64,000 bases of DNA from Minisyncoccia bacterium (GTDB taxonomy: Bacteria > Patescibacteriota > Minisyncoccia > SW-4-49-11). Shown one piece after another: positions 220-59,306 of the stretch (positions within the stretch are counted from its first letter, which is position 1; every line of letters starts with the position of its first letter). The notes below the pieces were generated by a model. That model was not told the DNA's origin. It saw only the letters and a list, made by a program, of their open reading frames with translations, and did not search any database. The stretch is taken from NCBI GenBank assembly GCA_044356725.1, contig JBIKVS010000004.1, forward strand, positions 28,494 through 92,493, given 5' to 3'. Made by a program: the position numbers and the translations under genes.

Positions 220-407
220 AGATTTAAGTTTATAAGTTTAGCTTTATTATAGCATATAGGGTAATAATTATAAATTATGAACGGTGAGTTATGAATGCCG
301 TAGGGGCGACCTTTCAGTCGCCTGTTATTCTACCCCAAACAGTATGAGATATAACATTGACAAAAAGAGGGAAATGTGCTATGGTTCAGAAGGTTTTTTA
401 CTAAACG

Positions 408-926
408 ATGTCCCCCTCCACCTCCTTTCTCGCTGCCCTCGACGCCGCCCTCTGCGCCGACCCCGCCCTTCGCGCCACTCGTGCCCGCGCAGCCATCACC
501 ACTCTCGCCGCCCCCGGTCAGTCCGATACCAGGAACTATATCACCCACAGCTCTTTAGTCGACAACTGCGCCACCCTTGCTGCCAACATTGCTGCACACG
601 TCGCCACTACCGGCAGAGAGCCCAACCTCACCTCCTGTGACACCCTCGCTGTCGCCATCAACTCTTCTCTTCTTGCTCTCCTTATCGACGGCGCAGCCAT
701 CACCACTCTCGCCGCCCTCGGTCAGTCCGATATCAGGAACTATATCACCCACAGCTCTTTAGTCGACAACTGCGCCACCCTTGCTGCCAACATTGCTGCA
801 CACGTCGCCACTACCGGCAGAGAGCCCAACCTCACCTCCTGTGACACCCTCGCTGTCGCCATCAACTCTTCTCTTCTTGCTCTCCTTACCGACGGCGCAC
901 CCCTCAGCGAATCTCATGAGACGTGA
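408..926 (+). CDS. Hypothetical Ala/Leu/Thr-rich protein encoded across a GC-rich tandem duplication; coding status uncertain.
   Basis: 172-aa ORF whose second half repeats the first (…AITTLAA(P/L)GQSD(T/I)RNYITHSSLVDNCATLAANIAAHVATTGREPNLTSCDTLAVAINSSLLALL…). All six frames are open here because of the high GC, so the open frame is weak evidence by itself. The ORF is followed by a terminator-like hairpin plus T-run at 940-976. Confidence 0.25.
   Translation: MSPSTSFLAALDAALCADPALRATRARAAITTLAAPGQSDTRNYITHSSLVDNCATLAANIAAHVATTGREPNLTSCDTLAVAINSSLLALLIDGAAITTLAALGQSDIRNYITHSSLVDNCATLAANIAAHVATTGREPNLTSCDTLAVAINSSLLALLTDGAPLSESHET
493..900. repeat. Tandem direct repeat: two 204-bp units (493-696 and 697-900), near-identical with two C>T differences near each unit's start. 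A partial third unit lies upstream.
   Basis: Direct reading: 'ccatcaccactctcgccgcc(c/t)cggtcagtccgata(c/t)caggaactatatcacccacag…cttatcgacggcgcag' occurs twice head-to-tail. The local composition is visibly GC-rich compared with the flanking AT-rich DNA. Confidence 0.9.
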
Positions 927-939
927 ATTCACTGTTTCT

Positions 940-976
940 CAACCCCCAGCCCCCGATTGTTTCGGAGGGCTGTTTT
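940..976 (+). terminator. Rho-independent terminator-like hairpin followed by a T-run.
   Basis: 'cagcccccgattgtttcggagggctg' forms an imperfect stem and is followed by 'ttttta'. Confidence 0.45.
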
Positions 977-997
977 TATAAAGTAGATAATATAGTT

Positions 998-1019
998 AAA
1001 TGTTCCACGTGGAACATTT
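998..1019. repeat. 22-bp perfect palindrome aaaTGTTCCACGTGGAACAttt (copy 1 of 3).
   Basis: Exact self-complementary sequence. The same 16-bp core recurs at 6290 and 7026. Confidence 0.9.
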
Positions 1020-1387
1020 TAGGGGAAGACAAACAAAAAAAGAGCTGAGCGCCCTTTTTAGAATGATATTTATAATTGTCTTTGCTTGCTTAAGCAGAAT
1101 AATATACTATAATATTTATATAAATTTGTCAAGAGTTGACATTTGTAACCAATAATTTGTCAAAATGTATATTGCAAAGACTTATATTATTCTATTATAT
1201 TTAATCTTAATCTAATCTATTGTCCTCCTCCGTCACCTACGGTGCCACCTCCTCCAAAGGAGGACAGTTAATTATATAATATTCTGTGTCTACCATAACG
1301 AGTATCTTATTCAGCACCTATATTTGCTTTTTTTCCTAATTTAATATACAATAATCCCATTAATAAACTCATTTATCTCCTAATTAT

Positions 1388-3196: not shown

Positions 3197-3942
3197 ATTA
3201 AAAAGCCCCACAGTGTGAGGCTAGGGATGTAAATTTTAATTGAAGTCTATAATTATGCCGATACTGAATATTTCCAAGAGAATAAGAATTTAAGTATAAT
3301 ATGTTTACAAGAGTGACTTGGTAATGTAAACTCTAAAGTATCAGAATATCTATATTGTTCAGAATTTATAGTACTTAAAATCTCCTTTCTCAATATATTT
3401 AAATTTCCATGATACTTACCTCTTATTTTTTGTAGTAATTTAGGGTAGTTCGTATCAGACATTATTTCTGCCCAGTGGCACTTCTGCATTTTCAATTCAG
3501 GTTCTAGAAAAGAAAGAAAATGTATTACATTAACTCTCATGACAGGTCTTGAGTGAGTTTTCTATATTTATATACCATAAATTGTAGTAAAATTGCAAGT
3601 TTTTTGTATTCTGCTATTTCAAAAATATCAAATAATCTTATTAACTATTTACAAAGTCAAATATATATGATATATATTAAATGCTAAGCTATCTTTTTTC
3701 ATCATGTACCCTCGAACAATTTGGTTTTTTTTGTCTAATTTGCTTAACTTTTTGAGTGTAAAGATTGAACATACGTGTTATTTGATTGAGAATTTAGTCA
3801 AATATTCCCTCAAATTACCTCTTTTTTTGGCGGCTATACTACAGAATGGTAGTGTATTTATTTATCACAGAAAAGTAAGAGAAACATACACGAGCACGAG
3901 AACTGAAGCTAATTAATCAATATTTTATTTAAATTTCAAACC

Positions 3943-3977
3943 TCACCTCCTTGGAGTCATACTCCGGAGGTTTTTTG
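3943..3977 (+). terminator. Strong rho-independent terminator (nested hairpin plus T6) inside a gene-poor ~1-kb stretch.
   Basis: 'acctcc ttggagtcatactcc ggaggt' is followed by 'tttttt'. No convincing upstream CDS is present (the 70-aa ORF at 3704-3916 looks spurious). Confidence 0.5.
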
Positions 3978-4243
3978 TTTATAAATTTTATAATATGGAA
4001 GGATAAACATTTACCCCCTCCTAATATCTCTTTACAAGAGCTAATAGGAGGGACTTAAAGCTCCCTCCAACTACTTACGGCAGTTAGAAAAGAGGACAAA
4101 AATACTCCACCCCGTCTCCTCGCTATGTAAACATAACAAGAATCCACCCCTCAAGAGGGGAATTTAAAAACAAGATCATATCAAGGATATGCGACAAAAA
4201 GTCGCCCTTGCAAAATTATCAACTCACTATTCACTACTCACAA

Positions 4244-5230
4244 TTAAATCAATCTATACAAAGCTTCAGCAAGTTTAAGTGGATCATGTCGGATTAAAGT
4301 CCTTCTAAGAGAATCTTTTTTATTTGGGTTGATAAATATACCATCTGCAATTAAATCAGCTCCTATAAGGGTAGTTTTACCAAGCTTATTAGCTTTACTT
4401 GATTTGACAACAGGTTCTCCCTCCTCTTGATACTTTGCTACCAATTTTGGATCAGGTTGAGTGGTATTATATAAAGCTATATCTATAACTTCAGTCCCCA
4501 TAAACTTATTCAGTTGTCTAATATGTTCCTCTACTGACCATTGTTTATGTCCAGCTACTTTAGACATCAGATTTACATTATAAATAATTTGAGCTTGGGT
4601 TTTTTCTAAGGCTTGACTCATTCCTGGAACTATCAAATTAGGTAGTAAACTCCCGTAAAAAAGACCAGGTCCGATGACAACACTATCTGCTTCCATAATA
4701 GCTTCTTTGGCTCTGGGATTGAGTGTGGTTTTGGGAATTAACTTTAATTCTTTGACAGGATGCTGTAAATATTCTGTAGAATCGTGGATTCTAGCTTCTC
4801 CCAATAGTTCAGTTCCGTTGTCAAGAGTAATAGATAGATTAATACTATCTGTGGTGACGGGTATAACCTCTCCTTTGATGGATAAAATATCACCAGCAGT
4901 TTTGACAGCTTCTTCAAAATTACCAGTAATTTTTTCTAGAGCTGATAAAAATAAATTTCCAAAATTATGTCCAGTCAATTCTCCACAGTCAAATCTATAG
5001 TTGAATAAATGTCTTAGAATTTCAGGTGATTCAGCAAGAGCCACTAGACATTGTCTAATATCTCCTGGTGGTAAAACTCCCAATTCATCTCTTAGCTTAC
5101 CAGTAGAACCACCATTATCCACCATATTAACTATAGCTTTAAGATTTAGATTGCTAAATAATTTTAATCCAGATAAAACAGTGAAAGAGCCAGTTCCTCC
5201 ACCAATCACCACTATATTTTTATTAGACAT
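4244..5230 (-). CDS. yvcK: YvcK/CofD-like (UPF0052) gluconeogenesis-factor family protein.
   Basis: N-terminal IVVIGGGTGSFTVLSGLK and NMVDNGGSTGKLRDELGVLPPGDIRQC, as in YvcK/2-phospho-L-lactate-transferase-like proteins. The ORF-track start at 5236 is TTG; the ATG at 5230 (MSNKN) is preferred. Confidence 0.8.
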   Translation of the reverse strand: MSNKNIVVIGGGTGSFTVLSGLKLFSNLNLKAIVNMVDNGGSTGKLRDELGVLPPGDIRQCLVALAESPEILRHLFNYRFDCGELTGHNFGNLFLSALEKITGNFEEAVKTAGDILSIKGEVIPVTTDSINLSITLDNGTELLGEARIHDSTEYLQHPVKELKLIPKTTLNPRAKEAIMEADSVVIGPGLFYGSLLPNLIVPGMSQALEKTQAQIIYNVNLMSKVAGHKQWSVEEHIRQLNKFMGTEVIDIALYNTTQPDPKLVAKYQEEGEPVVKSSKANKLGKTTLIGADLIADGIFINPNKKDSLRRTLIRHDPLKLAEALYRLI

Positions 5231-5397
5231 AAACAAAATTTAATAATAATTGTGGATAACTTGGGTATAAGTCGGGGTTTCTCACAAGTTATCCACAAAA
5301 TGGAATATGATATGATTATAATAAATACATATACATATATTAAATATATATTATTCTTTAGCTGATAGCAAGATTAGATTATTGAAAAGTAAATGAA

Positions 5398-6660
5398 ATG
5401 CAGAATAAAATTAAATTATTTATATATACTAGTATAGGCATAAGTTTGCCATTTTTGATAAGGACAACCTTATTTGAATATAATATTAGAAATATTAGTT
5501 CTCCGTATGCAACTATATATTTACATAGTCTAGATATAATCTTTCTTATAGCTATATTCTTTTTTTGGTGGAAAACTAAAAATCTACCATTTAGTGATAT
5601 AAAAAATGTGGATAAGTTATGGATAACTTTATTTTCTCTTATATTTTTACACTTGTTTTGGGTAAAATATCCTCTTTTGACTTGGGTTTCTGGAATGAGA
5701 TTTTATTTAGGACTAGCCTTGATTTGGTATATAAGTAGATTTCAATATTTAGCCAGAGACCTGAAATACACTATAAACGGACTCTTTATTGGGATGTTAG
5801 CTCAAGCTATTATAGTTATAGCTCAATTTGGATTACAAAAAAATCTTGGATTACCTCTTGTGATAGAACCGGTTTTATCTAATAGTATTGCAGGTGTGGC
5901 TAAAGTTGATATTTTTAACAATACCTTTATAAGGGGTTATGGAACTTTTCCACATCCTAATATATTGGGTTATGTTGGTATATTAGCTTTAATTTTGTTA
6001 TATGCTCAAAAACTAGGCAGAAAACTATCTATAATAATTTACTCGGCTACTATTATTATTGCAGGACTTATAGATCATTATATCTTAACCTCAATACAAG
6101 CTTTTGGGATATCTATTTTGACAGCAACATATCTTTTATACGCTAGATTAGATGGATTTGGTAAGGTTTTTCGTAAATTTATAATTCTTATTCTACACCT
6201 TTTAATCTTACTTAGTTTTTCTAAAACGGCTATAGCATTGCTTTTAGCGTTAGACTTAGTATATTTGACAACATCGACTCAAAAGTCAATGTTCCACGTG
6301 GAACAATTTCAAAGAATATTAAAATCCCTGCCAAGATTATTCGTCAACGCAATGTCCGTATCGGGAATCATATTCTTATGGATTATTCCATATGCACAAA
6401 TTATAGACACCATAACCAAAAGGTTTCTATATGTACAGGATGCTTTTCAAATGATAGGTTCTAATTTATTCTTTGGAGTTGGGTTGGGGCAGTATGTTAT
6501 AAATTTATCTGATAATCGTGAATTATGGCAATATGAGCCGGTGCATAATATACTTTTATTACTATGGAGCGAGCTTGGCTTTATTGGACTTAGTCTTATA
6601 ATAGTAATTTTTTGTGTGGAATGTTACACTTATGTATATGGATACAAAAAACAAAGGTGA
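5398..6660 (+). CDS. O-antigen ligase (Wzy_C)-like polytopic membrane protein.
   Basis: Many TM helices. C-terminal motif …YEPVHNILLLLWSELGFIGLSLIIV (H..N.yL..l.E.G..G) is typical of the O-antigen ligase/Wzy_C family. The CACGTG palindrome at 6290-6305 lies inside the CDS. Confidence 0.6.
   Translation: MQNKIKLFIYTSIGISLPFLIRTTLFEYNIRNISSPYATIYLHSLDIIFLIAIFFFWWKTKNLPFSDIKNVDKLWITLFSLIFLHLFWVKYPLLTWVSGMRFYLGLALIWYISRFQYLARDLKYTINGLFIGMLAQAIIVIAQFGLQKNLGLPLVIEPVLSNSIAGVAKVDIFNNTFIRGYGTFPHPNILGYVGILALILLYAQKLGRKLSIIIYSATIIIAGLIDHYILTSIQAFGISILTATYLLYARLDGFGKVFRKFIILILHLLILLSFSKTAIALLLALDLVYLTTSTQKSMFHVEQFQRILKSLPRLFVNAMSVSGIIFLWIIPYAQIIDTITKRFLYVQDAFQMIGSNLFFGVGLGQYVINLSDNRELWQYEPVHNILLLLWSELGFIGLSLIIVIFCVECYTYVYGYKKQR
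6290..6305. repeat. 16-bp perfect palindrome TGTTCCACGTGGAACA (copy 2 of 3), inside the ligase-like CDS.
   Basis: Exact match to the core at 1001-1016 and 7027-7044. Confidence 0.9.
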
Positions 6661-7024
6661 TTTGGGTGAAAGATTGGCGGTAAAATTATTACTATCCAAA
6701 GGGTTTGAAATTATAGACCAAAATGTAAGATTGGGTAAGTTCTCAGAACTAGACATTATTGCTATTAAGGATAAAGTTTTACACATCATAGAAGTCAAAA
6801 CTGTGTATAAATGTGGAAAACTTGGGGATAACTTAGATTTTCCTATATATAATATCACTCCAAGAAAGATCAAACATCTCAAACTAGGTGCTCAAATGTA
6901 TGTGCAGAAGCGGAAATTACAAGATATGGATATGACAATAGATGCTATTGCCTGTATTGTGGATAATTGTCATAAGAAAAGTTGGATTAAGCTTTATCCT
7001 AATATTCTAGAGGGGCTTGACTAA
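6638..7024 (+). CDS. yraN: YraN-family (UPF0102) predicted endonuclease.
   Basis: KGDLGERLAVKLLLSKGFEIIDQNVR…ELDIIAIKDKVLHIIEVKT matches the YraN signature. The start is taken at MDTKNKGD; it overlaps the end of the upstream gene. Confidence 0.65.
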   Translation: MDTKNKGDLGERLAVKLLLSKGFEIIDQNVRLGKFSELDIIAIKDKVLHIIEVKTVYKCGKLGDNLDFPIYNITPRKIKHLKLGAQMYVQKRKLQDMDMTIDAIACIVDNCHKKSWIKLYPNILEGLD

Positions 7025-7025
7025 A

Positions 7026-7045
7026 TTGTTCCACGTGGAACAATG
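7026..7045. repeat. 20-bp perfect palindrome atTGTTCCACGTGGAACAat (copy 3 of 3), immediately after the yraN stop codon.
   Basis: Exact palindrome. It sits 736 bp downstream of copy 2. Confidence 0.9.
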
Positions 7046-8346: not shown

Positions 8347-8431
8347 GCTAGGGTGGCGGAATGGTAGACGCAACGGACTTAAAATCCGTCGGTGATTAAA
8401 CACTGTGAGGGTTCAAGTCCCTCTCCTAGTA
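8347..8431 (+). tRNA. tRNA-Leu (anticodon TAA), class II with a long variable arm; CCA not encoded.
   Basis: Hand-folded: acceptor gctaggg/tcctagt (two G-U pairs), D-arm gcg-gaatggtaga-cgc, anticodon stem acgga/tccgt with loop cTTAAaa, long variable arm, T-arm gaggg-ttcaagt-ccctc, discriminator A. Confidence 0.8.
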
Positions 8432-8579
8432 CAAATTATAGAAACAAAAAAGCAATAGTCAGTTTTGACTATTGCTCAGGACTTGAAGGTCGGAGCGATG
8501 TGTGAGTTTGTGCGAAGCACAAGGCGAACACCGCGAGACGGGGTCGCGAGAATTTTCCGTCAGGAAAATTACTTGTGAC

Positions 8580-8602
8580 CAAGTCCCTCTCCTAGTACAA
8601 AT
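8580..8602 (+). repeat. 23-nt direct repeat of the tRNA-Leu(TAA) 3' end (caagtccctctcctagtacaaat), about 150 bp downstream of the tRNA; att-like.
   Basis: Exact duplicate of 8414-8436. The intervening 8437-8579 contains two perfect hairpins (gcaatagtc-agtttt-gactattgc and aattttcc-gtca-ggaaaatt) and a GC-rich segment. Confidence 0.85.
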
Positions 8603-8610
8603 AGAGAAGC

Positions 8611-8635
8611 AGTCCGTTTGGACTGTTTTTTAATT
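8611..8635 (+). terminator. Rho-independent terminator following the second copy of the tRNA 3' end.
   Basis: 'gcagtccgtttggactg' followed by 'tttttt'. Confidence 0.6.
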
Positions 8636-8639
8636 CCCC

Positions 8640-8966
8640 TCTTGAAGGGTGTCCCAAAGGGGCGGGGTGGATGGATTTATAAAACACAGGTGACATAAGG
8701 TCGCCCCTACGGGATGAGTGTAAAGCAAATGTCATTGCCTGCTTTAGGCAGAGATGTCTCCATTGAGCGACCGAAAATACTGTCCTCCCTTGGGGGAGGT
8801 GTCACGAAGTGACGGAGGAGGACAAAAAGCTCAAGTTTCAAAATACTTCCACCCCGTCCAGCGAAGCTGTCCACCCCCTCAATTTATCTCCATCCCTACG
8901 GGAGGTAAACCCGTAGGCAGAGAGGGGAATTTAAGGCAACTGAAAGATCGTTCTCTCCTAGTATAT
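8640..8966. repeat. Block of mosaic GC-rich intergenic repeat modules; these hairpin-forming modules are shared with at least eight other intergenic sites in the window.
   Basis: Contains modules that recur elsewhere in the window: 'aggtcgcccctacg' (family A); 'ctgtcctcccttgggggaggtgtcacgaagtgacggaggaggaca' (family C, compare 29519 and 32158); 'ccaccccgtc…gaggggaatttaa' (compare 4095-4165); and 'tctctcctagtata' (a tRNA-3'-end-like fragment). Confidence 0.7.
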
Positions 8967-8976
8967 CTTTAAAATA

Positions 8977-9066
8977 TAGACAAAAGTTTCAAAATATGGT
9001 ATGTTTCTGATTGTACGGACTCTAGAGCAATTTAGAGTCAAATTTTCTCTACCCTGAGGAGGGGTT
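8977..9066 (+). promoter_or_regulatory. Cassette promoter and 5' leader, copy 1: TAGACA, 17-bp spacer, TATGTT, then a ~55-nt leader with a conserved hairpin and a GAGGAGG ribosome-binding site.
   Basis: About 90% identical to 9657-9747. A related core (TAGACAAAAGT…AAATATG.TAT.GT) appears at 15642. Confidence 0.55.
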
Positions 9067-9516
9067 ATGTCTAACTCTCAATCGGATATAGATCCATTTG
9101 AAGAAGCACAATTTTTCATTCCCAACTCATCATACTTTAGTAGATTGTATTGTTTGGATTATATACTTACAAAACTTGATAGGGAACATAGAAGAATGGC
9201 TTTAAATATTTCTGATGACTCTAAACTTGCATTTGAAGGTGCTAATATACAACCTCCTGAGTATATTTATATTAAATTCATTGAAGAGTGGGAGTTAAGT
9301 GATAGTGATGTCCTGCACTTTGATTATCAGAGAAGAGGAGGAATTATCCCCAAATGGGGTCCTGGTGAAAAGTCGAAAGAATCACTTTTGCACATTGGGG
9401 CAATTATAAGGTTAAATCTTTTATATCAAATTAGAATGATAGGGCCAATAGATCCTAGCCCAAATGACTGTGAGTGGAGAAGAGTAGGAAAGATTGAAGT
9501 GGTAAAGCAAAGTTAA
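9067..9516 (+). CDS. Hypothetical protein, cassette ORF 1 (149 aa); no family recognised.
   Basis: ORF with a strong ribosome-binding site (gaggagg, 5 nt, ATG), enclosed by the shared promoter/leader and the shared terminator. Confidence 0.55.
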   Translation: MSNSQSDIDPFEEAQFFIPNSSYFSRLYCLDYILTKLDREHRRMALNISDDSKLAFEGANIQPPEYIYIKFIEEWELSDSDVLHFDYQRRGGIIPKWGPGEKSKESLLHIGAIIRLNLLYQIRMIGPIDPSPNDCEWRRVGKIEVVKQS

Positions 9517-9531
9517 TAAGTGTTTTCATTT

Positions 9532-9557
9532 CCCCCGCGTGCGATGCGGGGGTTTTT
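9532..9557 (+). terminator. Cassette terminator, copy 1 (cccccgcgtgcgatgcggggg + TTTTT).
   Basis: Perfect 9-bp GC stem with a T-run. It is identical to the element at 10122-10147, including the downstream 'attttcgactatttat'. Confidence 0.8.
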
Positions 9558-9656
9558 ATTTTCGACTATTTATTCACTCTCTCCACCACTTCCTAAACTT
9601 AAAGTATAGGAGGAACTTAAAGCCCTACGACAAGAATAGATTATCTCTTCGCAATA

Positions 9657-9747
9657 TTGACAAAAGTTTCAAAATATGATATGTTTCTGTTTGTCCAGGC
9701 TCTAAAGTAATTTAGAGTCAAATTTTCTCTACCCTGAGGAGGGTTTT
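9657..9747 (+). promoter_or_regulatory. Cassette promoter and 5' leader, copy 2 (TTGACA, 17-bp spacer, TATGTT, conserved leader, GAGGAGG ribosome-binding site).
   Basis: Near-identical to 8977-9066. Confidence 0.55.
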
Positions 9748-10110
9748 ATGTTGAATGTTCATTCGGCTGCATCAGCTGCAGAATTTTTTGTAGTAGATAG
9801 AATAACTGGGAAAGCTAGAATATATGACTTATCTTGTAAAGAGACTAAGGAAACAAGAATATTTTGGCTTCAAACTAGTCCTCTGAAAACAGAGTATATA
9901 GTTCTATTTTGCGATGTAACTTTAGACAATGGCAGAACAATTTCAGGTGGTGGTGAAATATCTATTATAAAAGAAGAGTTTGATAAACTCGAAATTAATG
10001 ATAATGTAGAAATAGGATTTGAGATACGTCAGAATTTCGGAGAACCTAGGAAATTATACCCACTTACATTAAAGTTTATAGATAGAGAAGGAGCTCTCGA
10101 TCTTTCTTGA
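9748..10110 (+). CDS. Hypothetical protein, cassette ORF 2 (120 aa); unrelated in sequence to ORF 1.
   Basis: Same arrangement as cassette 1 (promoter-leader, ORF, terminator), but with a different ORF. Confidence 0.55.
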   Translation: MLNVHSAASAAEFFVVDRITGKARIYDLSCKETKETRIFWLQTSPLKTEYIVLFCDVTLDNGRTISGGGEISIIKEEFDKLEINDNVEIGFEIRQNFGEPRKLYPLTLKFIDREGALDLS

Positions 10111-10121
10111 TTACCCCCCCC

Positions 10122-10147
10122 CCCCCGCGTGCGATGCGGGGGTTTTT
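10122..10147 (+). terminator. Cassette terminator, copy 2.
   Basis: Same hairpin and T-run as 9532-9557, preceded by a C-homopolymer. Confidence 0.8.
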
Positions 10148-10212
10148 ATTTTCGACTATTTATCTATAATTTGGTATAATAAATATACTTCAAATTAAGA
10201 AAATATACTGTT

Positions 10213-15486: not shown

Positions 15487-15641
15487 TTAGTGAATTGAAT
15501 TAAAATTCCCCTCTCTTCCTACGGTTTACCTACCGCAGGCAGGGAGATAAATTGAGGGGTGCCCATAGGGCAAGGTGGAAAAACCAGGCGACTGAAAGGT
15601 CGCCCCTACGAGAACTATGAACTAAAATGAGGAATATATTA

Positions 15642-15697
15642 TAGACAAAAGTGGGGAAATATGCTATTGTCTAGGAGTTCCCTCAAACCATCAGGCT
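15642..15697 (+). promoter_or_regulatory. Third copy of the cassette-type promoter core (TAGACA, 17-bp spacer, TATTGT), driving a GC-rich small ORF.
   Basis: 'atagacaaaagtggggaaatatgctattgt' parallels 'atagacaaaagtttcaaaatatggtatgtt' at 8975. Confidence 0.4.
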
Positions 15698-20959: not shown

Positions 20960-21135
20960 TTTCTTTGTAGGGGCGAACTTATTAGTCGCCTGTATTTTAT
21001 CTAAATTCTAGCAAGCGACTGAGAGGTCACCCCCTCCTAATATCTCTTTTCAAGAGCTAATAGGAGGGACAAAAACCCTACGAATTAAAAATTCACAATT
21101 CATAATTCACCATTCACAATTTATAATTTTACTTA
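20960..21135. repeat. Intergenic cluster of family A ('gtaggggcga…gtcgcctg'), family E ('ccctcctaatatctcttttcaagagctaataggaggga') and family B ('ttgtgaatggtgaattatgaat', reverse complement) repeat modules.
   Basis: Matches copies at 298-326, 4014-4053, 51034-51095 and elsewhere. Confidence 0.75.
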
Positions 21136-26226: not shown

Positions 26227-26655
26227 ATGGGAAAGAAGCGTGTAGCACAAAAAGGAGATTCAGTATCTTCATTGAAAATGGGAGTAAAAGAGACTTCTTC
26301 AAAAAAGAAGGTAGTAAGAGGTACTGCTTTTATTGTTTCTACCTACAATAATACTATGGTCTCTTTAGCTGACTTATCTGGAAATATACTAGCTTGGTCA
26401 TCCTCAGGATCTCTTGGGTTTAAAGGAGCTAAAAAAGCTACTCCTTATGCGGCAACTATGGTAGCTAAAACTGTTGTAGAAAAAGTCAAAAAAACTGGTC
26501 TACAAGAGATTAAAGTTATTATTAAGGGTGTTGGTCCAGGTAGAGAAGCTTCAATTAGAGGTTTGGCAGGAGCAGGGCTTAATATTATGTCTATTAAAGA
26601 TTTAACTCCTGTTCCACATAATGGAGTTCGTCCTCGCAAACCAAGAAGAGTATAA
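26227..26655 (+). CDS. rpsK: 30S ribosomal protein S11.
   Basis: AFIVSTYNNTMVSLADLSGNILAWSSSGSLGFKGAKKATPYAA. Confidence 0.95.
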   Translation: MGKKRVAQKGDSVSSLKMGVKETSSKKKVVRGTAFIVSTYNNTMVSLADLSGNILAWSSSGSLGFKGAKKATPYAATMVAKTVVEKVKKTGLQEIKVIIKGVGPGREASIRGLAGAGLNIMSIKDLTPVPHNGVRPRKPRRV

Positions 26656-26672
26656 TAGATTTATAAGAGTAT

Positions 26673-27272
26673 ATGTATAGTCGTAAGAAAGTTAAAATTT
26701 GTAGAAAATTTGGAGAGAGAATCTTTTCAGAGGTTAAAATTACTGATGAAAAGTTAGCGAAGGCTCCTGGAGTTCATGGAGCAAAGAGACGTCGTTCAGC
26801 TTCTGAATTTGGTAAGCAACTTCAAGAAAAGCAAAAAGTTAAGTATGTATATGGTCTTCGTGAGAAACAATTCCGACGATTTTATGAAAAAGCTTTGGCT
26901 GATGCTGAGCCAACCCCAACAGCTTTATTGAGAATTCTAGAAACAAGACTAGATAATGTTGTCTATAGAGCTACTATGGCATATACTAGAGAACAAGCTA
27001 GACAAATGATTTCTCATGGACATATTTTAGTTAATGGTAAAAAAGTTACTATTCCTAGCTTTATGGTTAAGCCAGGGGATGTAATTACATATTCAGCTAC
27101 TAAATCTAAATTGGTTGCTGAATACAAAGATAAGTTAAAAGATTCAGACCTTCCTTCTTGGCTAACTTTAGACAAGAAAAATCAAACTGTCGAAGTAGCT
27201 CACACTCCTGGAGTGGAGGAATTGAGTCAAAACTTCAACATTGCTCTAGTGATTCAGTATTATTCCCGATAA
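26673..27272 (+). CDS. rpsD: 30S ribosomal protein S4.
   Basis: N-terminal S4 region; S4 RNA-binding domain RLDNVVYRATMAYTREQARQMISHGHILVNGKKV. Confidence 0.95.
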   Translation: MYSRKKVKICRKFGERIFSEVKITDEKLAKAPGVHGAKRRRSASEFGKQLQEKQKVKYVYGLREKQFRRFYEKALADAEPTPTALLRILETRLDNVVYRATMAYTREQARQMISHGHILVNGKKVTIPSFMVKPGDVITYSATKSKLVAEYKDKLKDSDLPSWLTLDKKNQTVEVAHTPGVEELSQNFNIALVIQYYSR

Positions 27273-27290
27273 TAATAATCAAATACTCTT

Positions 27291-28220
27291 ATGTCTAATT
27301 ATATCATTCTTCCAAAAGCACCTGTACTAGTACAAGAAATTAGTTCTTCTCAAGCTATATATGCTATTGAGCCACTTAACCCAGGATACGGAGTTACTAT
27401 TGCTAATTCTCTAAGAAGAGTTATGTTGTCTTCATTAGAAGGAGTTGCAGTTACTAGATATAGTATTAAGGGAGTAAGTCATGAATTTACTACTATCCCT
27501 AATGTTCTGGAAGATATTCTAGATATTACCCTTAATATTAAGGCTTTAAGATTTGATGCTGTTATAGATTCTCCAACTCTATTAACTCTAAAAGCACAAG
27601 GTTCTAAAGTTGTTACAGGAGCAGACTTAAAATTACCTGGAGGAGTAACTGTAGTGAATCCTGAGACACCTATTCTAACTTTGACTAGCAAAGATGCTAA
27701 AATTGAAATGGAATTAATTATTGAGAAAGGATTTGGATTTAGAAAGGATATAGAGCAAAATTTACAAGGAGAAGTTGGAATTATTGCTGTAGATTCAATT
27801 TTTACTCCAGTGACTAAAGTTTCTTATGATGTAGAAGATACTCGAGTAGGAGATAAGACTAATTATAATAGGGTAGTTTTCAATATTAAAACTGATGGTA
27901 CAATTACTCCATTAGAAGTAATTCAGAAATCTGCTACTATTTTGGTCGAACAATTTAATGCCTTGACTGTGGAAGGAGCTAAAATCGAGGAGGTTAAAGA
28001 AGAAAAACCAGCTCTAGATATTGAAACTTCAAGTATTAAGATTGCAACTCTAGACTTATCTCAGAGAACTATTAAAGCTCTTGAGACTTCTGGAATCAAG
28101 AACATTGCTCAATTAGCACAATTTACACAAGAAGATTTATTAGCTATCAAAGGAGTCTCAACCAGTGCTGTCAAAAAATTGGCAGACCAAATAGCTCAAT
28201 ATGGTATCACTCTTGCATAA
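27291..28220 (+). CDS. rpoA: DNA-directed RNA polymerase subunit alpha.
   Basis: N-terminal dimerisation domain (IEPLNPGYGVTIANSLRRVMLSSLEGVAVT) and the C-terminal helix-hairpin-helix domain (the alpha subunit's DNA/activator-binding CTD); 309 aa. It follows rpsD, as conserved. Confidence 0.95.
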   Translation: MSNYIILPKAPVLVQEISSSQAIYAIEPLNPGYGVTIANSLRRVMLSSLEGVAVTRYSIKGVSHEFTTIPNVLEDILDITLNIKALRFDAVIDSPTLLTLKAQGSKVVTGADLKLPGGVTVVNPETPILTLTSKDAKIEMELIIEKGFGFRKDIEQNLQGEVGIIAVDSIFTPVTKVSYDVEDTRVGDKTNYNRVVFNIKTDGTITPLEVIQKSATILVEQFNALTVEGAKIEEVKEEKPALDIETSSIKIATLDLSQRTIKALETSGIKNIAQLAQFTQEDLLAIKGVSTSAVKKLADQIAQYGITLA

Positions 28221-28268
28221 ATAGCAAAAATAAGGTATAATGCAAAACATTAACAGGATCACACGATT

Positions 28269-28619
28269 ATGAATAAGGGAAATAAGTTACATAAGATTGG
28301 AAGAAATAGAGAGCAAAGAAAAGCGCTTTTGCGAAGTCTTTCTAATGATTTAATTACTCGTGGTTCTATTACCACTACAGAAGCTAAAGCTAAAGCTTTA
28401 AAACCTTTTGTAGAAAGAATGGTGACTCATGCGAAGACAGGTTCTCTATCTTCTAGAAGATATGTGCTTAGATTTTTGACTCAAGGAGCTACTCATAAGT
28501 TGTTTGATGAAATTGCACCTAATTATGCAGATAGAGTAGGTGGATATACTAGAATTATTAAAGCTCCTATTAGACAAAGTGATGTTAGTAAAATGGCTAT
28601 CATTGAATTAGTTAAGTAA
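28269..28619 (+). CDS. rplQ: 50S ribosomal protein L17.
   Basis: RKALLRSLSNDLITRGSITTTEAKAKALKPFVERMVT. Confidence 0.9.
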   Translation: MNKGNKLHKIGRNREQRKALLRSLSNDLITRGSITTTEAKAKALKPFVERMVTHAKTGSLSSRRYVLRFLTQGATHKLFDEIAPNYADRVGGYTRIIKAPIRQSDVSKMAIIELVK

Positions 28620-28625
28620 TATAAT

Positions 28626-28991
28626 ATGCAGAGAGAAATTATTACCATTGATGCAGATAATAAAAGATTAGGGACTCTTGCTACGGAGGTAGCTACTCTT
28701 TTGATGGGAAAAAACACAGCCAACTTTGAATATCATGTAGATGGGGGAGCTAAAGTTATTGTCTATAACACTAACAAATTATCCATTCATCCTAATAAAC
28801 TAGGATCTAAAACATATTATAGACATACAGGTTATCCAGGAGGAATTAAGTCAATAACTGCAGATAAGCAGATGGCTAAAGATTCAACTGAGGTTTTGAG
28901 AAAAGCTGTATATGGTATGCTTCCAAAAAATCGATTAAGAGCTAAAATGTTAGCTAGATTGGTATTACATAAGAATGATATAACTAAATAA
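28626..28991 (+). CDS. rplM: 50S ribosomal protein L13.
   Basis: MQREIITIDADNKRLGTLATEVATLLMGKN. Confidence 0.9.
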   Translation: MQREIITIDADNKRLGTLATEVATLLMGKNTANFEYHVDGGAKVIVYNTNKLSIHPNKLGSKTYYRHTGYPGGIKSITADKQMAKDSTEVLRKAVYGMLPKNRLRAKMLARLVLHKNDITK

Positions 28992-29518: not shown

Positions 29519-29585
29519 TGTCCTCCTTTCTACCTACGGCAGATAAATGGAGGAGGTGGCACGAAGTGCCGGTGGTGGATAGATT
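29519..29585. repeat. Family C intergenic repeat module (cctcctttc…aggaggtggcacgaagtgccggtggtggat).
   Basis: Near-identical copy at 32158-32205; related copies at 1221-1268 and 8780-8825. Contains the tight hairpin ggcac-gaa-gtgcc. Confidence 0.8.
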
Positions 29586-31489: not shown

Positions 31490-31669
31490 ATAAAATATAG
31501 ATTAAAATTATTATATCATATATTTTATATTTGTGTATAGTAGTGGGGGGATTAATTATAAATTGTGAATGGTGAATTATGCTTCGACAAGCTCAGCAAA
31601 CTCAATTTACTCTCGCTTGAGAGGGTCACTATAAAATATAATTATAAATTTAAATATTTTTTATAAATG

Positions 31670-32157: not shown

Positions 32158-32205
32158 TGTCCTCCTTTGGAGGAGGTGGCACGAAGTGCCGGTGGTGGAT
32201 TGAGT
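32158..32205. repeat. Family C repeat module. Family D ('gggtactccctccaaagggagaca', 32385-32404) follows in the same intergenic region.
   Basis: Matches 29519-29585 (C) and 57075-57116 / 59156-59197 (D). Confidence 0.8.
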
Positions 32206-32451
32206 TTAATATTATTATAAACAAGTGTTTATTTTAGTATTCCAAAGTATATCCACTCTCCCCCGTCGCAAATGGCATTTGCTCCTGGGAAACCTCACAG
32301 GTTTGACCAACCTTCCTCCACGGGAAAACTACCGTTTTCCCGACCCCTTTCCCAAAGGCCAAAGCCTTTTTTACGGGTACTCCCTCCAAAGGGAGACACA
32401 ATAAATTTCAACCTTAAAGTAATGTCTGTGATATTTCTCATCTTTTTCATA

Positions 32452-51033: not shown

Positions 51034-51095
51034 TAATTATGAATGGTAAGTTGTAAATTATGAATTTAGTAGGGGCGACCTTTCAGTCGCCTGTA
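51034..51095. repeat. Composite intergenic repeat: family B ('attatgaatggtaagttgtaaattatgaat') followed by family A ('gtaggggcgacctttcagtcgcctg', a GGCGAC/GTCGCC hairpin).
   Basis: The same B+A pairing occurs at 270-326. A copies also occur at 15586-15610 (reverse complement), 20967-20993 and 52023-52047 (reverse complement). B copies also occur at 21085-21130 (reverse complement), 31553-31582 and 55858-55895. Confidence 0.8.
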
Positions 51096-51171
51096 TTCTA
51101 TATACCTCATAAAACTAGACAAAAATGTAAAAATATGGTATAAGATTAAAGTAAATTATGGAGCGATCTCC

Positions 51172-51603: not shown

Positions 51604-52155
51604 TTTGACCCCGTAGTGATGACTTTATATTTACTTGTGCTTTATAAACCTCTAAAGAATAGAATAAAATTAGAAAAAGTTGAATAAATTGAAAGGAGTC
51701 ACTCTTGAGAGACTCCAATGTAATGTTATTGCTCATTTTAATCTTCTAATTTAGCTATAATACAATAACACAATACTACTGCTATTAAATATATAATTAT
51801 ATAAAGCAAATTAGCAAAAAATTTTTCCCAATACCCAACAATCAGATGAACAAATATAGAAAAATAATTCCAGAAAAGACACAATACAAATATATAAGAA
51901 ACAACAGTGAGAATATATTTGCACAATTCTAGTAACTCAAATTTAAGATTAGGCACGGAAAGTCTCCGTATAGTACAATAGACTTATATCATATTTTAAT
52001 ACTTTTGTCTATATTTAAATTCCAGGCGACTGAGAGGTCGCCCCTACGAAAGTCTAAGTGTAAGGTTTGAAGTTCCTTATAATGGCTTGTATAAAAGCGA
52101 TATATAAGATGAATATCTCGATTTACTGGGTATTGAGTTTATATAGTTATTAACA

Positions 52156-55795: not shown

Positions 55796-55948
55796 AATAT
55801 GATTATTTAAATAACCTTAATATTATATTGGATTTTAGCCTAAAATGCAATTAAAGGGAGTTATAAGTTATGAATGGAGAGTTATGGATTATATTAAAAT
55901 AAGTAATCATACTTGAAAGTAAATTTCTTTTCAGATATAATTTTGTAT

Positions 55949-56551
55949 ATGAAAAGAATATGTATATTTGGAGCAAGTATAACTTGGGGAGCTTTTGATA
56001 AAAAAGGTGGTGGTTGGATACACAGATTAAACAGTAATTTTATAAATAAAAAAACTGATATTCAAATTTATAATCTTGGAGTACCAGGCAATAATACAAA
56101 TGATTTATTAAAAAGATTTGATAATGAGTGTTCTGCTAGAAAACCAGATTTAATAATTTTTGGTTTGGGAGGAAATGATGCTAGTTACATAGATACTGAA
56201 AATAATATGGTGGTAAGCATAGATCAATTTAAAAATAATATTTTAAAATTAATACAACAAGGCAAATATTTTACAGATAAAATATTGTTTTTGGGATTAA
56301 CAAAGGTAAATGAATCAAAAACTATGCCTTCATTTCGTAATAAGCGAAAATTTATTTCTAATAAAAATATAGCTAAATATGACTCAATTATAAATACAAC
56401 TTGCAATGAAATGGGAATTTTATTCCTGCCCATGATAGATTTATTAGATATTGATGATTTGAGTAATGATGGAAGGCATCCTAATGATAATGGTTATCAA
56501 AAAATTTCTAATTGTGTCAGAGATTACTTATACAAAAATAATCTAATATAA
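55949..56551 (+). CDS. SGNH/GDSL-family hydrolase.
   Basis: Block I ICIFGASITWG, block III GGND, block V DGRHPNDNGY. The start is taken at MKRICIF (ATG at 55949); the ORF-track start at 55913 is TTG. Confidence 0.8.
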   Translation: MKRICIFGASITWGAFDKKGGGWIHRLNSNFINKKTDIQIYNLGVPGNNTNDLLKRFDNECSARKPDLIIFGLGGNDASYIDTENNMVVSIDQFKNNILKLIQQGKYFTDKILFLGLTKVNESKTMPSFRNKRKFISNKNIAKYDSIINTTCNEMGILFLPMIDLLDIDDLSNDGRHPNDNGYQKISNCVRDYLYKNNLI

Positions 56552-56552
56552 C

Positions 56553-56987
56553 TTATTTTTTCCACTTCTTCATTACAAATTTATAGTATTTGTATATCCA
56601 TATCCCATATAATATTGTAAGAACAATATAAAATAATCTTAAATATATCCAATATTGAGGGTCAAAATTTTCGCGGAACACCAATCCAAAAGGATACCAG
56701 TATTCTCGGTCTAGATAGGTTCTAGCAAGATAGTTTTGAATAGAAGTGATTAGACATCCTCCAAATACACTTTGAGAAATAGATATACTAAAGGTAAAAA
56801 ACAAAATAAATAGTTTACTATATATAATAGCTTTACCATACTTAAATTTAGGAATAATATCTCTTTTAGGGAATAGATTATTCTCGAGCAGTATATACAA
56901 AGCAATAAACCAAAATATAATCCAATAATTAGGATTATGAATTATATCTATCCATTGATTAATAAGTAGAGCTGTTTGGCTACTCAT
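56553..56987 (-). CDS. Hypothetical membrane protein.
   Basis: 144-aa ORF with three or four hydrophobic helices. Confidence 0.4.
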   Translation of the reverse strand: MSSQTALLINQWIDIIHNPNYWIIFWFIALYILLENNLFPKRDIIPKFKYGKAIIYSKLFILFFTFSISISQSVFGGCLITSIQNYLARTYLDREYWYPFGLVFRENFDPQYWIYLRLFYIVLTILYGIWIYKYYKFVMKKWKK

Positions 56988-57074
56988 AACATATTATAAA
57001 CCTACTATAAATACTAGTATTATAGCACTTTTGGCGGATTTTTGTAGGGGAATAATTGTGGGATATTGCCCTTC

Positions 57075-57116
57075 GTCCACCCTCCCCCTTTGGGGACTCC
57101 CTCCAAAGGGAGACAT
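57075..57116. repeat. Family D repeat module (gtccaccctccccctttggggactccctccaaagggagaca).
   Basis: Matches 59156-59197 and, in part, 32385-32404. Confidence 0.8.
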
Positions 57117-57273
57117 TTTAGGACAATGAATTTTTGTCCCCCTTCGGAGGGGGAAGCCCGCGGGGCGGGGGTGGATAACTTAATAACAAAGGTAGGACAG
57201 AAAACAAGAGTAATAGTAGTAATATTCTCAGTATAAAGAGAAAAGACCAGCCTCAAGGTGAGGCGGTCTGTGG

Positions 57274-57510
57274 TTAGTCGAGGAAGCTTTTTCTTGCAGA
57301 TCTAGCATTATTTGCAATTGCTTTTGCCGCAATCACTATGATGCTCTCTGTCGAGCTTCCTCCAACTACTTTAGGCTCTTGATTGTTAGAATTAAATTGT
57401 CCGAGTTTCTCCTCTCTCAGAATTTGATTCCATTTTTCAGGTTTGGTTATTTGACGCCATATTTCTAGATCAACTAGGTCTATTCCTAGTCCTGGCATTT
57501 TCTTCTCCAA
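57274..57510 (-). CDS. Small protein whose N-terminus resembles holo-ACP synthase (AcpS); possibly a truncated gene or gene fragment.
   Basis: MPGLGIDLVDLEIW… resembles the AcpS N-terminus (GIGxDIVEI). Only 78 aa, against about 120 for AcpS. A terminator hairpin with a T-rich tail lies downstream on the minus strand at 57232-57270. Confidence 0.3.
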   Translation of the reverse strand: MEKKMPGLGIDLVDLEIWRQITKPEKWNQILREEKLGQFNSNNQEPKVVGGSSTESIIVIAAKAIANNARSARKSFLD

Positions 57511-57595
57511 AAAACAACTTTAAAATATTATCATAATTCTAAATCTCAATCAATATGTTATAATAAAAACATCTTAGAAATTAATTAATAGAAGG

Positions 57596-58780
57596 ATGAA
57601 ACATTATAATTATATTATTATTGGAGCGGGAATTGCAGGGACTAATGGGGCGATGGCTATTCGTAAGGAGTCTCCAGAATCTAGTATTGTCTTGATTGGG
57701 GAGGAGAATTATCCTGTTTATTCTCGGGTTAATATTAGCAAGATTGTCTCTAATGCCAAGCAACCACAAGAGTTATTATTAAAAACTGAAGAACAATTTC
57801 AACAACAGAGTATTGATAGAATTATTGCAAGAGTGACTAGTCTTAATAAAGATGAAAAAAGTATAACTTTAGATAATGGTGAAGTCTTGGGATATGATAA
57901 GGTTCTGATTGCAACTGGTGGAAGGGCTAGAACTTTGACACAGGCTGGAGCGGGTTCACAGGGAGTTTTTTCCTTTCAAACTTTAGATGATGCAATTGAG
58001 GTGAGAGACTATATCCAAGACAAGGAGAAGATTACTATTGTAGGAGGAGGATTTATTGGGATTGAATTTGTAGAGTTATTATCTAATCTCGGTAAACAAG
58101 TTACTCTAATTCTTCGGGATGACTGGTATTGGCAAGGTATGATTGACCAAATTGGAGGTAATATCTTGAATGAATATTTGTCCAAAAGAGCCAAAATTTA
58201 CTATGAAAGTGAAATTAAGGAAATCCGTGGGAATCAGATGGGGCAGATTGCTGAGATTGAGCTGACTTCTGGTGAGATTATTCCAACTGAGGCTATGTGT
58301 GTAGGTATTGGTTTGGAATTAAATAAAGACTTTTTGCCCACGGAGCTTTGTAATCGTGGACTGAAGGTTAATCAGTATTTACAAAGTGAGGATGAGAATA
58401 TCTTTGGAGCGGGAGATATGGTGGAGTACTATGATATTATCCAAGAGCAATATTCTGGTTCTGGTACTTGGGCTCAGGCTTCTCTACAAGGTATGATAGC
58501 GGGGTATAATATGGTGCATTCTGAGGTGATGAAGGAGTTTAGTCTGATTCCAGCTTACTGCCCCAAGACTAGTTTAGCGATTGCTTTTGTAGGACAATGT
58601 AGAGTTAATCCTGAGACTATGCAGTCAGTAGTCATAGAACAAGGGGAGCGATATGTGCAAGTCAATACTAATTCTAAGGGAGAGATTGTAGGGGGTGTGG
58701 TAATAGGCGAGTCAGCTTATATGGCTACTATTAGGAAATGGATAGTGGATAAGTTAAAGCTAGAAGATATTATTAAATAG
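57596..58780 (+). CDS. FAD-dependent pyridine nucleotide-disulfide oxidoreductase.
   Basis: Rossmann motifs IIIGAGIAGTNGA and ITIVGGGFIGIEF; about 394 aa. Confidence 0.8.
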   Translation: MKHYNYIIIGAGIAGTNGAMAIRKESPESSIVLIGEENYPVYSRVNISKIVSNAKQPQELLLKTEEQFQQQSIDRIIARVTSLNKDEKSITLDNGEVLGYDKVLIATGGRARTLTQAGAGSQGVFSFQTLDDAIEVRDYIQDKEKITIVGGGFIGIEFVELLSNLGKQVTLILRDDWYWQGMIDQIGGNILNEYLSKRAKIYYESEIKEIRGNQMGQIAEIELTSGEIIPTEAMCVGIGLELNKDFLPTELCNRGLKVNQYLQSEDENIFGAGDMVEYYDIIQEQYSGSGTWAQASLQGMIAGYNMVHSEVMKEFSLIPAYCPKTSLAIAFVGQCRVNPETMQSVVIEQGERYVQVNTNSKGEIVGGVVIGESAYMATIRKWIVDKLKLEDIIK

Positions 58781-59155
58781 ACATAACTTTTGTCATAAAT
58801 TAACAAAAGTTAACAAGACTTGACAAAATTATTAAAAAGGTATAGATTAAATTTGCCTCCATTTTTCTGTGGAATGCCTTCAAATCGTCGTCACAAGATT
58901 AATCGCAAGGTCAGAAAAGCAATAACATATTGGGGTCTTAGTCAAAGATCCTGTGAAAATCGTATTTTTCAAAGAGCCAGAAGCTGGCCTCAACCAAGAA
59001 CAGGAAAATTAATTATTGATATGCCTGAGTCCACATAGCTCAATACAACAACTGAATACCCTCCCCTTCCACTCAGCCTCCGACAATCGGAGGCTTTGTA
59101 AATTTTATAGGTATTAATTTTCCCTCTGAGTTGGTGGGAGTGGATAAGAAGTCAT

Positions 59156-59197
59156 GTCCACCCTCCCCCTACGGGTACTCCCTCCGAAGGGAGACAG
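59156..59197. repeat. Family D repeat module (gtccaccctccccctacgggtactccctccgaagggagaca).
   Basis: Paired with 57075-57116. Confidence 0.8.
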
Positions 59198-59306
59198 AAT
59201 ATAAGATCCACCTCCTCCAACTACCTATGGAAGTTAAAAAGGAGGGCGGTTAGGTCAATGATATGTTATAATAAATAAATATATACATATTTAATAATAA
59301 AACTTT

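Follow-up and report, generated by a model that had tools for sequence, protein, structure and literature searches.

Nested GC-rich hairpin repeats, probably REP/BIME-like mobile elements, in the intergenic spacers of a Paceibacteria chromosome

A 64-kb piece of chromosome from a Minisyncoccia bacterium (contig JBIKVS010000004.1; hereafter the window) carries short GC-rich hairpin modules in its intergenic spacers, and these are read here, with a probability of roughly 0.6, as a community of small, non-coding and mobile hairpin repeats, similar to repetitive extragenic palindromes (REPs) and bacterial interspersed mosaic elements (BIMEs), resident in the chromosomes of Paceibacteria, bacteria of the candidate phyla radiation (CPR). 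The initial annotation had distinguished six recurring families, A to F, and all six were recovered at or near the places where they had been recorded, far beyond chance, by BLAST comparison of the window with itself (E-values of the short modules from 3e-3 down to 6e-14) and by comparison with shuffled sequences. Short repeats common to other loci cover ~1.5 kb of the window, in ~18 segments within 11-12 spacers. Several interacting and persistent repeat families are unexpected in the tiny, streamlined genomes of CPR bacteria; moreover, the units break short-read assemblies and can pass for structured RNA genes.

The window (~33% GC, with a cumulative GC skew rising overall) has a housekeeping gene content (typA, mutS, mutL, dnaJ, pnp, ribosomal proteins, ruvC, polA, efp, xseA and suf genes) and five tRNAs, the sole Rfam families found at gathering score. 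Its host is a Paceibacteria bacterium whose close relatives are metagenome-assembled genomes (MAGs) labelled Paceibacteria, Parcubacteria or Minisyncoccia; the same strain recurs in several metagenome assemblies, and its contigs are 100% identical over the modules. Loci for comparison were picked by an exact-match scan with the family A 25-mer only, which gave 73 loci with ~500 kb of DNA flanking the copies: 36 stretches from ~11 species-representative GTDB genomes and a further 37 from metagenomes, with CPR/Paceibacteria as the label of nearly all. Families C, D, E and F were also present in these loci, although the loci had been chosen for A alone. The pattern is thus neither confined to the window nor short of statistical significance, the two grounds on which the initial annotation would have discarded it. 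Neither A nor D had any match in viral contigs, and a phage origin was rejected on that account.

Architecture, nesting and turnover of the repeat units

Family A is built on a 25-mer (GTAGGGGCGACCTTTCAGTCGCCTG; type A1) in which GTAG and one further base (G) precede a 6-bp stem (GGCGAC), the loop CTTTCA, the complementary GTCGCC and a final TG, with T-rich flanks on both sides and a DNA fold energy of -6.4 kcal/mol. The 25-mer lies at 300(+), 15585(-), 51069(+) and, with one mismatch, 52023(-), against 0.00 copies expected in shuffles; together with two decayed copies (8687-8711(-) and 20967-20992(+)) and one interrupted by an E unit (21012-21084(-)), the window holds seven, all intergenic (~1 per 9 kb). 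All copies whose 5' end is complete have GTAG; in two others, interrupted by E, GAGG stands in its place. Across GC-rich 6-bp hairpins in general, GTAG was the top 4-mer at offset 1 before the stem (87/713), and three hairpin types carry it. The sister hairpins A2 (GTCGGC/GACCCC/GCCGAC, with a compensatory variant GTCGGT…ACCGAC) and A3 (GGAGGG/TTTAT/CCCTCC) have the (TT)CGTAG head of A1 and often lie head to tail immediately upstream of it. Inverted A pairs, with GTAG outermost and 70-320 nt apart, fold into a single long hairpin; they were seen in L001, L003, L026, L035, L045, L046, L066 and L081/L082 and at window 20967/21012. Family A therefore shows four of the five defining features of GTAG-tagged REPs, namely unit size (20-40 bp, with a 6-13 bp stem and a short loop), an unpaired GTAG at one end of the hairpin, many dispersed and mainly extragenic copies common to relatives, and inverted dimers of the REP doublet (REPIN) form; the fifth, a gene for the cognate REP-associated tyrosine transposase (RAYT), was not found near the copies. 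Family A is thus a GTAG-tagged REP, occurring alone, in REPIN-like inverted pairs, or head to tail behind sister GTAG hairpins. Family B is of another kind, a heptamer array (TGAATNR)n; its pattern (TGAATNRTGAATNRTGAAT, at most two mismatches) has 10 matches in the window against 0.16 expected, the weak copy at 55858, read by eye, falling under this threshold.

Families C, D and F, first described as separate, proved to be sub-types of one superfamily of double-hairpin units (DHUs) of 41-46 nt, composed of a head, (A/G)TCCACC or GTCCTCC, a variable first hairpin, a second hairpin, CCTCC-AAA-GGAGG or CCCCTC-AA-GAGGGG, and a short tail; the head ATCCACC and the second hairpin CCTCC-loop-GGAGG are the features that they share. 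One sub-type has terminal inverted repeats (TIRs), TGTCCTCC…GGAGGACA (GTCCTCC…GGAGGAC). A covariance model built on 44 units detected 108 copies in 473 kb and seven strong copies in the window (1222, 8781, 29519, 32158, 57075, 57135 and 59156; E from 1e-14 to 5e-5). F copies lie at 8849-8934, 4106-4167, 15503-15575(-) and 8624-8672(-), and a split D-type unit at 32251-32398. In helix 1, changes on both sides were found in 5/5 pairs (103 such cells vs 43 ± 8 in shuffles), with a covariation score of 0.262 vs 0.138 in shuffles and at most 0.117 in slid controls, in an alignment that was fitted to the model and so leans towards structure.

The units are also hosts of one another. Besides their basic length, DHUs occur in discretely longer forms (53-85 nt, 22/107 units) with inserts of about +18 or +33-42 nt; those in the second loop are placed directly after CCTCC, 5' of the terminal A-rich loop triplet, which is usually AAA. 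One such insert unit is a 19-nt hairpin (CTGCCTACCGCAGGCAGGC). The E motif (CTTTAAGTCCCTCC…GGAGGG) was found inside D, C, F and A hosts, where, compared by eye, it sits in a G-run with two G more than the uninterrupted host has; the copies at 4013-4054 and 21029-21070 are 97.6% identical (BLAST E = 6e-14), and an E insert divides the A copy at 21012-21084. A ~105-nt element of four hairpins (the G element) lies inside the first hairpin of DHUs in ~20 loci as well as at window 32264-32371, with a CGTC-tagged hairpin (CGTC-GCAAAT-GGN-ATTTGC-TCC) at one end and, in most copies, a hairpin followed by CTAC at the other. E, the 19-nt hairpin and the ~105-nt element occupy fixed positions within loops or G-runs of other units, which sets concrete target rules for any proposed mobilising enzyme to account for. 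The modular shuffling that had been called unusual is a real mosaic, consisting of nesting plus clustering in hot-spot spacers; its oddity, in turn, is accounted for by fixed-position insertion and pile-up in permissive spacers, as in BIMEs and Neisseria (PMC3733652).

Content differs between relatives at otherwise conserved sites. In one filled/empty pair, the D unit of L032 is intact (…CCTCCCC/CTGCGGG…, the slash marking the junction), while the orthologous L044 carries there, in the loop of the unit, a 103-nt insert with sharp ends between flanks that are 96-99% identical; no target-site duplication (TSD) was found in this pair. Window segments 3607-4241, which holds E and F, and 8712-8979 correspond to 62 nt and 25 nt, respectively, in the relative L031, and in the mutL-dnaJ spacer A lies in opposite orientation and with different companions in the window and in L019. 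For two further spacers, orthologous loci were fetched via the neighbouring oxidoreductase gene. Between its conserved ends, spacer 56988-57260 contains D+DHU in the window; two relatives have B+F+B+A there, and two more have F+A+A. A relative with a 95% identical oxidoreductase protein possesses the D+DHU block of 59156-59249; one with 99% identity and three others lack it and have a plain terminator instead. Decayed and interrupted copies occur within the window itself, among them 3/7 of the A copies. The REP-like or MITE-like behaviour (MITE, miniature inverted-repeat transposable element) proposed at the outset is borne out by the combination of GTAG tag and hairpin, the inverted pairs, the presence/absence differences and the nesting.

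Origin of the copies and rival explanations

Under the interpretation preferred here, the element would produce new copies by inserting itself elsewhere, most likely in the form of single-stranded hairpin DNA handled in trans by a structure-specific enzyme, for which a RAYT/IS200-type HUH/Y1 transposase would be the obvious candidate. Targets would be unpaired hairpin loops and AT-rich, non-transcribed gaps between terminators and promoters, and copies would afterwards decay or be deleted. The search for a cognate RAYT suggested in the initial annotation was carried out over the window and the 73 loci (~565 kb) by tblastn with E. coli RayT, by a HUH…Y regular expression and by a hidden Markov model (HMM) of 120 enterobacterial RayT proteins, and returned none, with probes that were enterobacterial only and insensitive to divergent Y1 enzymes, and without a whole genome being covered. 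The one weak match of these searches, in L050, was discarded as a superoxide-dismutase-like open reading frame (ORF). NCBIfam and Pfam revealed no transposase and no HUH nuclease among window ORFs of at least 100 aa (the ribosomal block 26227-28991 and 6614-7024 excepted), nor was there a multi-copy transposase-like ORF family near the repeats, the families present being pilin-like, toxin-antitoxin toxins and housekeeping, and the largest near A copies type IV pilin-like.

Several observations weigh against mobile repeats as the explanation. The L032/L044 pair is the only clean filled/empty site: further ones were sought among near-identical contigs and none was found, the other indels lying in genes or simple sequence, and the remaining differences between relatives are replacements rather than precise insertions. 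Intra-strand template switching can, without selection, generate compensatory changes in DNA palindromes, and no transposase was found with the narrow probes used, in the window and ~500 kb flanking copies, no complete genome being scanned. No replication-strand bias is present in the window (A 3+/4-, DHU 3+/4-), although the cumulative GC skew rises overall. Moreover, the A 25-mer is identical among species whose genes are only 77-88% identical, and the orthologue in L034 of the copy at 51069-51093 matches it at 25/25 positions though the adjoining spacer has diverged; such conservation could mean selection for a host function instead of recent transposition.

In one alternative, which is unlikely, A (with B perhaps included) would be a signal in the DNA of the host that some protein recognises: a species-group uptake sequence serving the competence machinery, a nucleoid or gyrase site like that of the BIMEs of E. 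coli, or an insulator or operator upstream of strong promoters. Selection, not spread by transposition, would then have maintained it. The 25-mer, including its loop and the asymmetric GTAG, is almost invariant over ~11 species-level MAGs and the 37 metagenome stretches; L034 preserves the B+A block 51034-51093 at 100%, in contrast to the diverged 25 nt that separate the block from the conserved promoter; several A copies lie 11-33 nt from TTGACA/TAGACA-N17-TATGGTAT boxes; and a type IV pilin-like family is the commonest near A. A maintained signal, however, fits poorly with the decay or interruption of 3/7 window copies and with a position and orientation that vary among relatives within the same spacer, and closeness to promoters may merely mark where insertions are tolerated. 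Known DNA uptake sequences occur at ~1 per kb, also inside genes, unlike the strictly intergenic A copies of the window. The GTAG-plus-hairpin form is, besides, exactly that of RAYT substrates (PMC3733652).

A functional RNA, whether a structured non-coding RNA of the whalefall-1 type or a 3'-end stabiliser or terminator of mRNAs kept by selection on RNA structure, is unlikely. Compensatory changes in helix 1 of the DHUs would suit it, as would the T-rich tail that A shows in GTAG-first orientation, flagged as terminator-like at three sites, and two permissive Rfam matches to whalefall-1 (RF01762) with the same two-stem layout and a purine tail, at 57079-57116 (24.0 bits) and 57134-57176 (22.7 bits); that motif was rated certainly an RNA by its discoverers (PMC2864571). 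These scores stay below the gathering score of 37, the gathering score of an Rfam family was reached by no repeat unit, either in the window or in the 124 kb of loci searched, and the other permissive matches were spurious miRNA models, so that the recommended Rfam check yielded whalefall-1 as the closest family, sub-threshold. By crude stop-to-stop gene calls, A units in tandem spacers point the same way as the genes in 17 cases and the opposite way in 14, the DHUs in 20 and 17, and divergent spacers hold eleven copies of each; the lack of orientation bias and the copies between divergent promoters argue against the terminator, insulator or small RNA roles initially proposed. G:T (71) and C:A (74) mismatches are equally frequent, which favours neither strand. 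None of the three terminator-like A copies stands behind a co-directional gene, DHUs lack a T-run, A has its T-rich tail in one orientation only, and the ordinary hairpin-plus-T-run terminators of this genome look different. The units are furthermore nested, truncated and variably present between conserved flanks. A terminator or oriented RNA role was rejected on the orientation counts, the mismatch counts and the copies in divergent spacers. As for their position, modules had been reported often between convergent or operon-end genes; this holds only in part, the window spacers that carry modules comprising ~8 tandem, 2 convergent and 2 divergent ones.

It is distinctly unlikely that the repeats form a hairpin-in-hairpin insertion system, with small modules copied specifically into the loops of others, always directly after CCTCC and 5' of AAA, or into G-runs with two added G, in hosts devoid of a RAYT/IS200 enzyme; in that case they would be mobilised by an unrecognised enzyme or by host replication and repair functions, and the orphan whalefall-1 'RNA' would be a further member of this DNA repeat superfamily. 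Very unlikely is a mosaic produced with no dedicated enzyme, by illegitimate recombination, template switching and gene conversion at GGAGG/CCTCC and GGGG motifs, possibly with uptake of DNA from relatives. Module junctions do lie in GGAGG or GGG runs, chimeric units exist (e.g. A head + E + F tail in L034), whole spacer segments are replaced between the window and its 99%-identical relative, and no transposase was found in the DNA searched; but unrelated loci and genomes show the same insert types at the same position and with the same added length, the 103-nt insert ends sharply within DNA that is otherwise 96-99% identical, and a copying process is required to account for near-perfectly identical A copies at many unrelated sites. 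That the similarities stem from chance or from assembly artefacts is a negligible explanation. Contigs from short reads of the same strain are indeed broken within units, yet shuffles expect 0 (A) and 0.16 (B) copies, BLAST E-values reach 6e-14, and independent assemblies from many samples contain the same units, all of which refutes it. The breaks themselves (L076 and L078 start or stop inside DHUs at window 1252 and 8810) indicate that the repeats fragment assemblies of these genomes.

Feature table and other features of the window

Repeat units and remnants located in the window
Feature	Position	Strand	Values and remarks
Family B array, (TGAATNR)n, abutting the GTAG side of an A unit	265..296	+	
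A1 unit, intact, GTAG-G-GGCGAC-CTTTCA-GTCGCC-TG; between divergent promoter-like boxes	300..324	+	0 mismatches; -6.4 kcal/mol
DHU, TIR-type (family C), GTCCTCC...GGAGGACA	1222..1266	+	58.1 bits, E = 1.8e-12; same-strain contigs break here
E long hairpin, CCCTCCTA...TAGGAGGG-ACTTAAAGC	4014..4061	+	97.6% identity to 21029-21070; z = -3.6
Decayed DHU remnant with loop insert, TCCCTCCAACTACTTACGGCAGTTAGAAAAGAGGACA	4062..4098	+	
F-type DHU, head CTCCACCCCGTC, tail CCCCTCAAGAGGGGAATTTAA, first hairpin disrupted	4106..4167	+	
Family B array	4222..4247	-	
Weak F-like DHU, …GGGGCGGGGTGGAT	8624..8672	-	16.4 bits, E = 0.024; 8651-8624 matches 4145-4172
Decayed family A unit, CAGGTGACATAAGGTCGCCCCTACG	8687..8711	-	
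DHU, TIR-type (family C)	8781..8823	-	62.7 bits
F-type DHU, nested hairpin in second loop, …ATCCCTACGGGAGGTAAACCCGTAGG…	8849..8934	+	89.7% identity to 15559-15503
Half E unit, then CCCTACGA (A-head remnant)	9589..9629	-	
F-type DHU, nested hairpins in second loop	15503..15575	-	
A1 unit, intact, 33 nt upstream of TAGACA-N17-TATGCTAT promoter-like box	15585..15609	-	
Decayed A unit, left arm of inverted REPIN-like A pair	20967..20992	+	pair folds as one long hairpin, z = -3.8
A unit split by E-type hairpin (21030-21070), between GGTCACCCC and CTACGAA	21012..21084	-	
Family B array, overlapping TTCATA-17-TATAAT promoter-like site upstream of rpsO	21084..21123	-	
DHU (C-type), 19-nt hairpin inserted 5' of AAA loop of second hairpin	29519..29580	-	52.9 bits
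Family B array without adjoining A unit	31552..31584	+	
DHU (C-type), top-scoring window copy	32158..32200	-	67.1 bits; two hairpins, z = -3.1
D-type DHU, first hairpin split by ~108-nt multi-hairpin element	32251..32398	+	z = -5.7
Nested G element, 5' CGTC-tagged hairpin GCAAAT-GGC-ATTTGC, four hairpins	32264..32371	+	92% identity to L044 copy; 10 copies aligned
Family B array adjoining A unit, conserved with L034	51034..51066	+	
A1 unit, intact, between divergent promoters	51069..51093	+	L034 orthologue 25/25 identical
A1 unit, 1 mismatch	52023..52047	-	
Weak family B-like array	55858..55890	+	by eye
DHU (D-type), sub-threshold whalefall-1 match on opposite strand	57075..57115	+	31.9 bits; whalefall-1 24 bits
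DHU (ATCCACCCCCGCC… type), inverted pair with 57075-57115	57135..57176	-	55.2 bits; whalefall-1 22.7 bits
DHU (D-type), absent from orthologous spacer of four relatives	59156..59196	+	27.6 bits
Decayed DHU with loop insert, ATCCACCTCCTCC-AACTACCTATGGAAGTTAAAA-AGGAGGGCGG	59206..59249	+	partial covariance-model match

A strong promoter-like box with extended -10, T(T/A)GACA-AAA…-N-TATG(G/C)TAT, recurs at 357-385, 8977-9005, 9657-9685, 15643-15671 and 51116-51144; this box is conserved in relatives and is often preceded, at 11-33 nt, by an A unit. A 172-aa ORF at 408-926 has its own consensus promoter, 48% GC in a 33% GC genome and a 204-nt tandem duplication (487-894) with 99% identity, of which the same-species contig L077 has one repeat copy fewer; it had no Pfam match. 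Two adjacent cassettes (8962-9573 and 9642-10163) have in common a 91-nt promoter and 5' leader, at 91% identity, and their 42-nt terminators (CCCCCGCGTGCGATGCGGGGGTTTTT…) are identical; they encode unrelated small ORFs of 149 and 120 aa without family match, and L031 has only one cassette. An exact second copy of the last 23 nt of tRNA-Leu(taa) (8414-8436) occurs 147 nt downstream, at 8580-8602; it has the look of an att-site scar left by an integrated element, or of a tRNA fragment, and the first 85 nt after this tRNA are 93% conserved in L031 (window 8347-8602 region).

A perfect 16-nt palindrome, TGTTCCACGTGGAACA, is found at 1001-1016, 6290-6305 and 7027-7042 (three vs 0 expected) and could serve as a regulator site or be left over from recombination; the third copy adjoins cfa (cyclopropane fatty-acid synthase), a gene absent from L031. 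A 78-aa ORF at 57270-57506(-), starting MPGLGIDLVDLEI…, resembles by eye the N-terminus of holo-ACP synthase and is a called gene in L081 and L083. Downstream of the oxidoreductase gene, behind a conserved promoter, lies a small ORF (58820-59040; L079, L082, L083 and L084 compared) whose sequence is wholly different in the relative with the 99% identical oxidoreductase, a difference that suggests segmental replacement through inter-strain recombination. The module-rich loci of relatives also contain a high-GC, secreted-looking ORF (L003 469-1110), PemK/MazF-like toxins and a Fic/DOC-like protein (L003, L007, L018, L061 and L065).

Comparison with known systems

MITEs, including Rickettsia palindromic elements and Correia elements, are likewise short, non-coding, structured and multi-copy. 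TIRs (TGTCCTCC…GGAGGACA) are found here in one DHU sub-type only, typical MITEs are larger than these units of 25-46 nt, and no window copy lies inside a called gene; the filled/empty pair has no TSD, a GG duplication is possible with E, and no autonomous element was seen near the copies searched. Arrays of the CRISPR or TIGR type are a poor match, the copies being dispersed and irregularly spaced over 11-12 spacers.

The whalefall-1 motif (RF01762; PMC2864571), known only from uncultivated bacteria, resembles the DHUs in its two adjacent stem-loops, its first hairpin type (UCUCC-UUGG-GGAGA) and its 3' tail AGGGUGAGGAC, and is the best Rfam match of two window units. It differs in score (24 and 22.7 bits vs 37, the threshold being reached by no unit in the 124 kb of loci), and the units described here are multi-copy, present in both orientations, nested and variably present, a behaviour that better fits a repeat element and suggests a re-reading of this orphan motif. 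GC clusters and double-hairpin elements of fungal mitochondria and hairpin elements of sponges (PMC4478555, PMC2800124) are also GC-rich hairpins in the spacers of AT-rich compact genomes, mobile and nested, with no known transposase of their own; with unrelated hosts and sequences, they offer a behavioural analogy only.

Mosaic spacers built from short repeats in varied combinations and orientations, in a subset of spacers, are known as BIMEs in E. coli and from Neisseria (CGTC-1/dRS3; PMC3733652), where CGTC-tagged hairpins stand beside GTAG-tagged ones, as they do here; in those systems REPs alternate with linker motifs, whereas true nesting at a fixed loop position is frequent in the present units. 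Besides their tag, CGTC-tagged REPs have by definition a stem of 8-9 bp that opens with A/T pairs, a loop of 4-5 nt and a CCA-like tail (PMC3733652); the hairpin of the G element has the tag and a TCC tail, but a 6-bp stem starting with G-C and a 3-nt loop, and falls outside that class.

No description of REP-like repeats in CPR bacteria was found in the literature. Family A is closest to the GTAG-tagged REPs and REPINs that occur with RAYT (TnpA-REP) in E. coli, Pseudomonas and Stenotrophomonas (PMC3733652; PMC3116915), GTAG followed by a hairpin being the form of RAYT substrates (PMC3733652, PMC3479197, PMC8266576). Both have a short unit (25 nt in A) with an unpaired GTAG one base before a GC-rich stem of 6-7 bp and a short loop, dispersed extragenic copies, inverted pairs folding as a long hairpin, several stem types and persistence across species. 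Family A departs from them in that no RAYT was found near any copy searched, in its association with heptamer arrays, and in the A2-A1 and A3-A1 head-to-tail heterodimers, common here and rare in described families. Tagged REPs have been listed for eight phyla, CPR/Minisyncoccota not among them (PMC3733652), and family A extends GTAG-tagged REPs to a phylum outside those eight, in which several carrier MAGs from a lake time series (isolate names ME2003…, ME2015…) provide a natural test bed.

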